Part shown: piece by piece, positions 5,405-6,547 of the stretch | Position numbering within the stretch: position 1 is the stretch's first letter | Layout of the letters: the number at the start of each line of letters is the position of its first letter | Sequence record: PQ511047.1 | Length of the DNA stretch: 44,416 bases | Reading direction: 5' to 3' (one strand) | From: Escherichia phage UHP65 | Translations under genes and position numbers: made by a program | Notes under the pieces: generated by a model | Databases searched by the model: none | What the model was told of the DNA's origin: nothing | What the model saw: only the letters and a program-made list of their open reading frames with translations

Positions 5405-6547
5405 TTATTTCAACATTTCCGGGCTAATGGTTAAGCGCGCTACTTCGCCGTAGTTGGCGCTATAGGTGATGACGTTTGCGCTGCGACCGGACATCCAACC
5501 GCCACGACTGGCGTAGGCGTCTTTCGCTGCGAGCGTCCGGTGCTGTTCAACAATCATGTTGCGGGATTCTACAATCTTCTGGTGGTGCAAGTGGCCTACG
5601 TGCGCGTAGCTATACTCACTGGACCCGAAAGCCTGTCTGAATTTAGAAATCATAACCGGCTCGATAGCATCGAATCGCGCTTTGTGCCCGTGGTGGAAAA
5701 ATAGCGTGGTCTTGCCGTGCTGCACCATTTTGTAGACGTCCGGGGACGTATCCACATCGACGCGCGGCTCGTTCTCGTACAGAGTATTGAACATCTCAGC
5801 CAGCCAAATCATACCCGACTCGTCATGATTTCCCTGGACGATTAGCAGTTTGACTTTGTGGTGTTTTTGCAGCGCCAGTTCGACGACGTTGCGCACCATG
5901 CGAATCATGTATCGGACCAGTTTCTGGTAGCGGGTGTCGGCGTCCAGTATGTGACCACTTGCCGGAGTGACAGCATCGAGGCTATCAAAGTGGGCCATAT
6001 CCCCGAGGATATTAATTACGGCAGTGCCTGCGTCTGGTGCGCGTGCGAAGGCTTCGACAAACCAGCGGTAGAACAGGTCTTCGGCGATCGCCATATCCCA
6101 GTCTTCGCCAGTCTCCTCCCCCCACGCCAACATGCCCAGGTGGAAGTCTGACACGGTGTACAGGTTGAGCAAGTCGAGCGCCTGGATCGGTACTGGCGGG
6201 GCTTTTACTGGCGCTGCCGGTGTGATCTCGCTGTTCATACCCTCGACAACAGCGCGCATAGCTTCGAGTTGGCGCTCCTTGTCCTGCTCCGTAATAACCC
6301 ACGACATGACCTCTTCGCCATTGCCGCGTACCAGGGCCGATACGCGCTTAACACCGAAGCCATCGGCGACGCGCTTGTGGATTACGGCATCGTTGCCGTG
6401 TCCAATGCCTTTTTTCGACAGGCGGGCTTTCCGCATGTAGACGTTTCGAAGTGCAATGCCGTATTTCTTCGCAATCTCTTTAACCGTAGTCCCTGCCTGA
6501 ATTTCAGCAATCAATTGCTCGTCTGTGATTTTAGTTTGCGGGTGCAT
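5405..6547 (-). CDS. HTH domain fused to calcineurin-like metallophosphoesterase
   Basis: N-terminal HTH-like TVKEIAKKYGIALRNVYMRKARL; phosphoesterase motifs ILGDMAHFD, QGNHDE, HHGH, VGHLHH; AGGAG RBS. Confidence 0.7.
   Translation of the reverse strand: MHPQTKITDEQLIAEIQAGTTVKEIAKKYGIALRNVYMRKARLSKKGIGHGNDAVIHKRVADGFGVKRVSALVRGNGEEVMSWVITEQDKERQLEAMRAVVEGMNSEITPAAPVKAPPVPIQALDLLNLYTVSDFHLGMLAWGEETGEDWDMAIAEDLFYRWFVEAFARAPDAGTAVINILGDMAHFDSLDAVTPASGHILDADTRYQKLVRYMIRMVRNVVELALQKHHKVKLLIVQGNHDESGMIWLAEMFNTLYENEPRVDVDTSPDVYKMVQHGKTTLFFHHGHKARFDAIEPVMISKFRQAFGSSEYSYAHVGHLHHQKIVESRNMIVEQHRTLAAKDAYASRGGWMSGRSANVITYSANYGEVARLTISPEMLK

Follow-up and report, generated by a model that had tools for sequence, protein, structure and literature searches.

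The DNA analyzed here is the 44,416-nt sequence of Escherichia phage UHP65 (PQ511047.1), referred to below as the window, and is a Dhillonvirus genome. The gene on which we focused encodes a protein that joins an HTH to a metallophosphoesterase (MPE) domain, hereafter HTH-MPE, and the 3-kb region around it is 92–94% identical to that of the Escherichia phages SECphi4, PNS1, B2, JL1, and jat, all of which share the gene order of the window position for position. At the DNA level, at least 80% of this 3-kb query region was covered in 100 Dhillonvirus-type records, and the encoded protein is 97–99% identical to deposited Dhillonvirus proteins. The 380-residue open reading frame was recovered as initially annotated, on the minus strand, with an ATG start codon preceded by an AGGAG ribosome-binding site. 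The features of the locus are listed in the table.

Table. Features of the HTH-MPE locus in the window (positions count from the first letter of the 44,416-nt sequence)
Feature	Position	Strand	Remarks
Holins (lysis genes, upstream)	7447–7979	−	
Endolysin (lysis gene, upstream)	6969–7460	−	
55-aa ORF, 3' of endolysin		−	
Terminator-like hairpin, upstream of HTH-MPE gene	6757–6778	−	after the 55-aa ORF; 8-bp stem with 6 GC pairs, then T-run
Predicted extended −10 promoter TGGTATATT	6581–6589	−	~30 nt upstream of ATG; consensus match only
Ribosome-binding site AGGAG	6558–6562	−	10 nt before ATG; position kept in five Dhillonviruses
CDS, HTH-metallophosphoesterase, 380 aa, PHROG 704, T1 gp16-like	5405–6547	−	ATG start; full-length PHROG 704 match
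Residues 1–60, basic three-helix HTH, presumed DNA-binding module	6368–6547	−	
Residues 61–106, conserved beta-hairpin and helix	6230–6367	−	family consensus PDGFxVKGxSTLY...QWVK
Residues 107–125, Pro/Ala-rich linker EITPAAPVKAPPVPIQALD	6173–6229	−	
Residues 126–380, MPE catalytic domain	5408–6172	−	motifs I–V
Terminator-like hairpin, downstream of HTH-MPE gene	5364–5384	−	20 nt past stop codon; then T-run TTTTTTGTG
Perfect extended −10 element TGTTATAAT	5345–5353	−	right after the MPE terminator, ~70 nt ahead of terS ATG (5274)
TerS (downstream)	4723–5274	−	probable start at 5274
TerL (downstream)	3338–4723	−	
Portal (downstream)	1807–3327	−	

The initial annotation correctly placed the gene between the lysis genes (6969–7979) and the terS/terL genes (3338–5274). 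It also described the gene as immediately upstream of terS, and the two are indeed adjacent; however, the 130-nt gap between them contains both a promoter-like element and a terminator-like hairpin, and co-transcription with terS is therefore not implied by adjacency. With a promoter-like element of its own and a terminator on each side, the HTH-MPE gene looks like a separate transcription unit, as far as can be read from these sequence signals. The TG and TATATT positions of its predicted promoter (TGGTATATT) were kept throughout the five aligned Dhillonviruses, including those that diverge farther upstream, and gp16 of phage T1 is also flanked by annotated rho-independent terminators. The window showed no significant enrichment of the extended −10 pattern TGnTATAWT (4 occurrences versus 1.8 expected), and three of these four matches were intergenic and correctly oriented. 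A third such element (TGCTATATT, 10022–10030, minus strand) lies ~30 nt upstream of a minus-strand ORF at 9512–9991. Around the HTH-MPE gene itself, the search for operator-like repeats returned chance-level short repeats only. As for the downstream neighbor, TerS probably starts at 5274 rather than at a TTG at 5373, because the PHROG terminase match starts at residue 37 of the 216-aa TerS reading and phage jat annotates 4723–5274. Between the lysis genes and the HTH-MPE gene, the spacer also contains a 26-aa hydrophobic ORF (MARKDIWVLAIWTTAAFIGMVICELI, 6609–6689, minus strand), whose ATG follows GAGAGGAG at a distance of a few bases. Phage jat and L021 share this ORF with the window, and the entire segment is missing from the Dhillonviruses L019 and L020; it is therefore an indel that falls outside the MPE unit.

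An AlphaFold2 model built from 80 homologues (pLDDT 87.6, pTM 0.76) consists of a three-helix bundle, a beta-hairpin (residues 64–73 and 79–88), a helix (90–106), a linker (107–125), and an alpha/beta domain (126–380). The three helices of the bundle (9–17, 22–29, and 33–45) were predicted, with a pLDDT of 87, both in the full protein and in the N-terminal part alone, and residues 1–60 have a pI of 10.2, as in a three-helix HTH with a basic surface of the resolvase, NarL-LuxR, or sigma-4 type. Members of the family match Sigma70_r4_2 (1.5e-9), GerE (2.4e-8), HTH_1, and similar models, and the window protein's own Pfam HTH match falls under the curated cut-off. The N-terminal module, which places 107–158 aa ahead of the MPE domain, was present in all 91 aligned representatives; an HTH-less homologue occurs in Campylobacter phage F370, where it is annotated as "T1 gp16-like; gp47". 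For the hairpin-helix part (residues 61–106) no recognizable relative was found. Within the linker, residues 107–120 are without regular secondary structure in the model and columns 107–124 are weakly conserved in the alignment. These data, together with the intact catalytic motifs, bear out the HTH plus calcineurin-like phosphoesterase architecture that had been read from the open reading frame.

The catalytic domain carries D134-F-H136 (motif I), G182-D183, G239-N240-H241-D242-E243, H285-H286, and G318-H319-L320-H321-H322, that is, all five metal-binding motifs of the calcineurin-like MPE superfamily (DxH, GD, GNH[D/E], H, and GHxH), and it has the beta-sandwich MPE fold. All of the motifs originally named are present in the protein, and motif I had been overlooked. 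Among 91 representatives that share 32–48% identity with the window protein, D134, H136, G182, D183, N240, H241, H286, G318, and H321 are invariant and H319 is at least 90% conserved. The window protein misses the curated Pfam cut-offs for PF00149 (20.0 bits versus 21.5) and PF12850 (22.4 versus 27), and only 19 and 12 of the 91 relatives, respectively, match these models at E ≤ 0.01. The family is thus too divergent for the Pfam models, and its membership in the superfamily rests on motifs and fold. Motif I has the form D-x-H-L-G and motif II the form G-D-x-x-H, with H186 at least 90% conserved, a pattern that we take to be in the style of Mre11 (GDLFH). Motif II is followed by the family element VTPxSGHxLDAD, in which T194 is invariant and whose loop (190–196) is modeled with low confidence, and a second family-conserved element, EQHxTLAAxDAYAxRGG, precedes the C-terminus. 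The nearest solved folds are those of SbcD and Mre11, by a narrow margin over non-nuclease MPEs; the top Foldseek match in the PDB was Rv0805 (E 1.9e-8), and GpdQ and MJ0936 also ranked high. From the intact motifs, the C-terminal module is probably a catalytically competent di-metal phosphoesterase, with Mn2+ as the probable metal.

The profile search proposed along with the initial annotation gave an end-to-end match to PHROG 704, "DNA repair exonuclease" (residues 5–380 against positions 2–390 of a 390-position profile, E 7.6e-162), and the second-best match was phrog_284, an "exonuclease" family (1.8e-13). By tblastn, relatives were detected in 2,062 of 50,697 phage records, with at least 80% of the query covered in 1,679 of them. 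They include Dhillonvirus, Kagunavirus, Jerseyvirus, Drexlerviridae, Vibrio and Ruegeria phages (Casjensviridae), and Campylobacter myophages, and their GenBank labels range over "phosphoesterase", "calcineurin-like phosphoesterase superfamily domain protein", "DNA repair exonuclease", and "winged helix-turn-helix domain-containing protein". A HMMER search of 1.84 billion representatives retrieved 4,648 clusters (50% identity) at E<1e-3 and 1,130 at E<1e-30, and most of the matches listed were 370–420 aa long. The gp16 protein of phage T1 (ST16, 40822–41955) belongs to the same family and bears the same annotation, and identity to Drexlerviridae and Jerseyvirus members is 42–50%. In Drexlerviridae, the gene is carried by 508 of 522 phages and has been reported as persistent (PMC13164509). 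The fusion of HTH and MPE, initially regarded as unusual, is therefore the normal form of a large and already annotated family and not a peculiarity of UHP65. The window protein is a typical member with the same build of HTH, hairpin, and MPE domain, and solely the genome position (lysis genes, HTH-MPE gene, terS) is specific to Dhillonvirus. In sum, the original observation was confirmed and its interpretation supported in part, while the supposed rarity of the fusion was not supported.

Full-text searches for this family yielded annotation-level mentions only and no functional study. The gene is already widely annotated and the window adds nothing to the deposited annotations, in which the name "DNA repair exonuclease" (PHROGs and GenBank) is itself a homology inference. 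A PADLOC scan returned no match. Papers dealing with PUA-Cal-HAD, with Dhillonvirus anti-Tmn and Nmad5, and with KpAvs2/Ksap1 were set apart since they concern other genes. Ksap1 is a protein of the Dhillonvirus SECphi18 that triggers the Klebsiella Avs2 defense system KpAvs2 (PMC11564622). A 74-aa ORF in the window (24038–24262, plus strand; phrog_10685, unknown function), located between a DNA methyltransferase gene (23572–24057) and a HAD/PNK-like gene (24259–24729), corresponds in size and synteny to Ksap1 as described (PMC11564622) and is a candidate for it. The "phosphatase" mentioned beside Ksap1 is most likely this HAD/PNK-like gene, not HTH-MPE.

Gene neighborhoods differed widely among lineages. 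In Drexlerviridae the order is helicase, VRR-NUC, Dam, small ORFs, MPE, (HNH/SH3), holin, endolysin, and spanin, with the terminase far off. In Kagunavirus and Jerseyvirus, the gene lies instead in a short opposite-strand island of the tail module, between the tail-tube and tail-chaperone genes. Within this island (4620–6119 in L002 and 4747–6659 in L004) a superinfection-immunity gene resembling T4 Imm comes before the MPE gene, and in Jerseyvirus an HNH endonuclease comes after it. Endonuclease genes of the HNH homing type immediately follow the MPE gene in T1 (42028–42510), a Jerseyvirus (L004, 6159–6659), and Vibrio phages (L005, 6010–6519), which suggests that homing-endonuclease insertion beside this gene happened repeatedly. 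In prophage-like elements of E. coli, the MPE gene is 19 bp upstream of a DnaB-type helicase gene and follows a replication initiator and a variable Ant/T5orf172-like gene. Specifically, five E. coli contigs (L008–L012) carry homologues of ~45% identity (8001–9119 in L008) in compact integrase-bearing elements with the order cI, cro, replication initiator, Ant or T5orf172-like, HTH-MPE, DnaB helicase, and NinB, and in L008–L010 these elements are beside ogt/fnr.

Among metagenomic phages, one has the MPE gene after NinG and a NusG-like gene and another after a primase, a RecA-dependent nuclease, and a dGTP diphosphohydrolase; in yet another, it separates the lysis genes from a lambda-type Nu1/GpA terminase. 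The HTH-less homologue of Campylobacter phage F370 comes after genes for a Holliday-junction resolvase and a DNA ligase. Genes upstream in the IMG/VR loci encode DNA polymerase A, SSB, NinB, a RecA-dependent nuclease, and YbcO. Tallies of neighbors by PHROG and Pfam showed mostly replication, recombination, and lysis functions upstream and mostly lysis, terminase, and nucleotide-metabolism functions downstream, and genes for dNMP kinase, dGTP diphosphohydrolase, dUTPase, and PNK recurred nearby. Proximity to dNMP kinase and polynucleotide kinase genes is also seen in Drexlerviridae, where these two are the commonest genes immediately after the MPE gene in phages that lack the SH3 gene (PMC13164509). 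No conserved partner gene emerged from the 25 non-redundant IMG/VR loci, in which the largest neighbor cluster was present in four. Therefore, the gene tends to close the early (replication, nin-like) region and has no obligate partner, and its adjacency to the small terminase gene is specific to a lineage and not a property of the family.

In its presumed way of working, HTH-MPE comes closest to Mre11 and SbcD. Mre11, SbcD, and T4 gp47 share only 14–17% identity with HTH-MPE, which has an N-terminal HTH module instead. Unlike these enzymes, whose partners are Rad50, SbcC, and gp46, HTH-MPE has no such partner either beside its homologues or among the window ORFs scanned: these included all the largest, and each was assigned either another function or an unrelated family. 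Nor is the Mre11 capping domain evident, as ~185–190 residues align to SbcD and Mre11 chains of 319–362. The curated NCBIfam models of SbcD and Mre11 gave no match at E ≤ 1, and a profile search against the PDB reached Mre11 and SbcD only at E 0.8–2.7. The hits of PDB sequence searches were set aside, being marginal (HTH and Mre11/SbcD only) or, for the top single-sequence ones, repeat-protein artefacts. Since no curated model matches, no ATPase partner is encoded, and no capping domain is evident, HTH-MPE would be a candidate Mre11-like MPE nuclease rather than an orthologue of Mre11 or SbcD. Two other DNA nucleases of the MPE fold have very low sequence similarity to it: DP1 of the archaeal PolD, which has an OB fold and works in a polymerase complex, and MPE/PdeM of Pseudomonas putida, which is without an accessory domain and is encoded in a ligase/helicase gene cluster.

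On this basis, we favor, at about even chances, the reading that HTH-MPE is a Mn2+-dependent, Rad50-independent DNA nuclease or end-processing enzyme that is held on DNA by its own HTH. We infer this reading, with DNA as the substrate, from the Mre11-style motifs, the "exonuclease" PHROG, the conserved DNA-type HTH, and the DNA-metabolism neighbors. It is further supported by metal-ligand motifs that stay invariant over 91 representatives down to 32% identity and by a gene that behaves as core rather than patchy, both in Drexlerviridae (508 of 522; PMC13164509) and in the 100 Dhillonvirus-type records. The lack of a Rad50/SbcC-like ORF among those scanned and of a conserved neighbor is consistent with an autonomous enzyme. 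In such an enzyme, the HTH would hold the protein on DNA, taking the role that Rad50/SbcC has for Mre11/SbcD, with the Pro/Ala linker as a flexible connection, and the MPE domain would cut or trim DNA, acting exo- or endonucleolytically on ends, hairpins, or blocked termini. This activity might serve phage replication, recombination, concatemer metabolism, or the breakdown of host DNA for nucleotide salvage, and the dNMP kinase, dGTP diphosphohydrolase, dUTPase, and PNK genes nearby would fit salvage. In T1, loss of host-DNA degradation is a phenotype of mutants in "gene 2.5", which might be ST16. Against the nuclease reading stand the unmatched SbcD and Mre11 models, the partial alignment to their chains, and the origin of the exonuclease name in homology; moreover, the HTH could serve autoregulation and not substrate tethering.

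A phosphodiesterase that hydrolyzes immune signals (cNMPs, cyclic oligonucleotides, or ADPR-derived molecules), close to the degradation of host signaling nucleotides considered in the initial annotation, seems rather unlikely to us. The superfamily does include cNMP phosphodiesterases (Rv0805 and CpdA, of class III), with Rv0805, GpdQ, and MJ0936 among the high-ranking structural matches. In addition, the gene is a self-contained, terminator-flanked unit of variable position, moron-like in the opposite-strand island of Kagunavirus and Jerseyvirus next to the superinfection-immunity gene. However, a conserved HTH of the DNA type has no obvious role in the hydrolysis of small molecules, motifs I and II are nuclease-style, the neighbors are replication and nucleotide-metabolism genes, and the gene is core and persistent rather than patchy. 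Also counted against it is that the known anti-CBASS and anti-Pycsar enzymes Acb1 and Apyc1 have, to our knowledge, other folds and no DNA-binding domains. A related reading, which we regard as quite improbable, is that the family is not a repair nuclease but a DNA-tethered phosphodiesterase of counter-defense or host takeover, destroying at the phage genome, for example, immune signals made of nucleotides or oligonucleotides, or DNA or RNA species produced by defense systems, such as retron msDNA. On the other hand, the catalytic domain might heal ends in the manner of the calcineurin-type domain of bacterial Pnkp, as a 3'-phosphatase or 2',3'-cyclic phosphodiesterase, and act with phage polynucleotide kinase and ligase on nicked DNA or on tRNA cut by host anticodon nucleases. 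Several linkages point in this direction: the kinases that follow the MPE gene in SH3-less Drexlerviridae (PMC13164509), a PNKP-type HAD domain downstream in one IMG/VR locus, the DNA ligase adjoining the Campylobacter homologue, and, in the window, the PNK/HAD-like protein (24259–24729, phrog_415) and a small ORF (23121–23585) that matches a "DNA ligase" PHROG. Yet the latter two are ~18 kb away, linkage is inconsistent in the 25 non-redundant loci, no sequence-level match to Pnkp-type models was found, and an HTH suits duplex DNA better than tRNA, all of which makes end healing unlikely.

Another rival reading is an accessory nuclease that works with terminase at pac/cos cleavage or in concatemer trimming, in the way that HNH proteins assist HK97-type terminases. 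We consider this very doubtful, as a long distance separates the gene from the terminase in T1 and other Drexlerviridae, as it belongs to the tail module in Guernseyvirinae and to the replication module in prophage-like elements, and as a terminator and a separate promoter-like element intervene before terS in the window. That the linkage is kept with unrelated terminase types speaks for a common location in the genome, where the early region ends, and not for a specific partnership. The same location is reminiscent of lambda, in which the MPE phosphatase gene closes the nin region and directly precedes the late genes. Lambda NinI (lambda-PP) belongs to the same superfamily as HTH-MPE, and several homologues resemble ninI in occupying the slot after NinG, NinB, or Rus-like genes, as would suit a Ser/Thr/Tyr protein phosphatase that remodels host phosphoproteins, another of the functions initially put forward. 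Nevertheless, HTH-MPE does not carry the PPP signature (GDxHG ... GDxVDRG ... GNHE): GDxHG and GDxVDRG are absent, and the window protein has SDFHLG and GDMAHFD. This function would also leave the conserved HTH unexplained, and we hold it to be highly improbable. The HTH would, by contrast, be the central element of a protein that chiefly regulates late-gene transcription, with the MPE domain as a sensor or accessory; its sigma-region-4/LuxR type and the location of the gene at the early/late boundary in many lineages (e.g., after a NusG-like gene and before lysis and packaging genes) would agree with this. But the invariant catalytic residues imply selection for enzymatic activity, HTH-less homologues exist, and no repeated operator-like sequence surrounds the gene, so that such a regulator appears very unlikely.

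The interest of this locus thus resides in the function of the family and in nothing peculiar to UHP65. HTH-MPE proteins are among the most persistent uncharacterized enzymes of common coliphages, namely Dhillonvirus, Drexlerviridae including T1, Kagunavirus, and Jerseyvirus. If they were DNA-tethered phosphodiesterases of counter-defense, the near-universal presence of the gene in several virulent siphophage lineages would amount to widespread and unrecognized immune evasion. If, as we favor, the family is an HTH-tethered, Rad50-independent nuclease similar to Mre11, it would show how small siphophages manage the processing of DNA ends or the reuse of host DNA when they have no SMC partner. 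The function of this gene would matter for the thousands of therapeutic-candidate phages that carry it.
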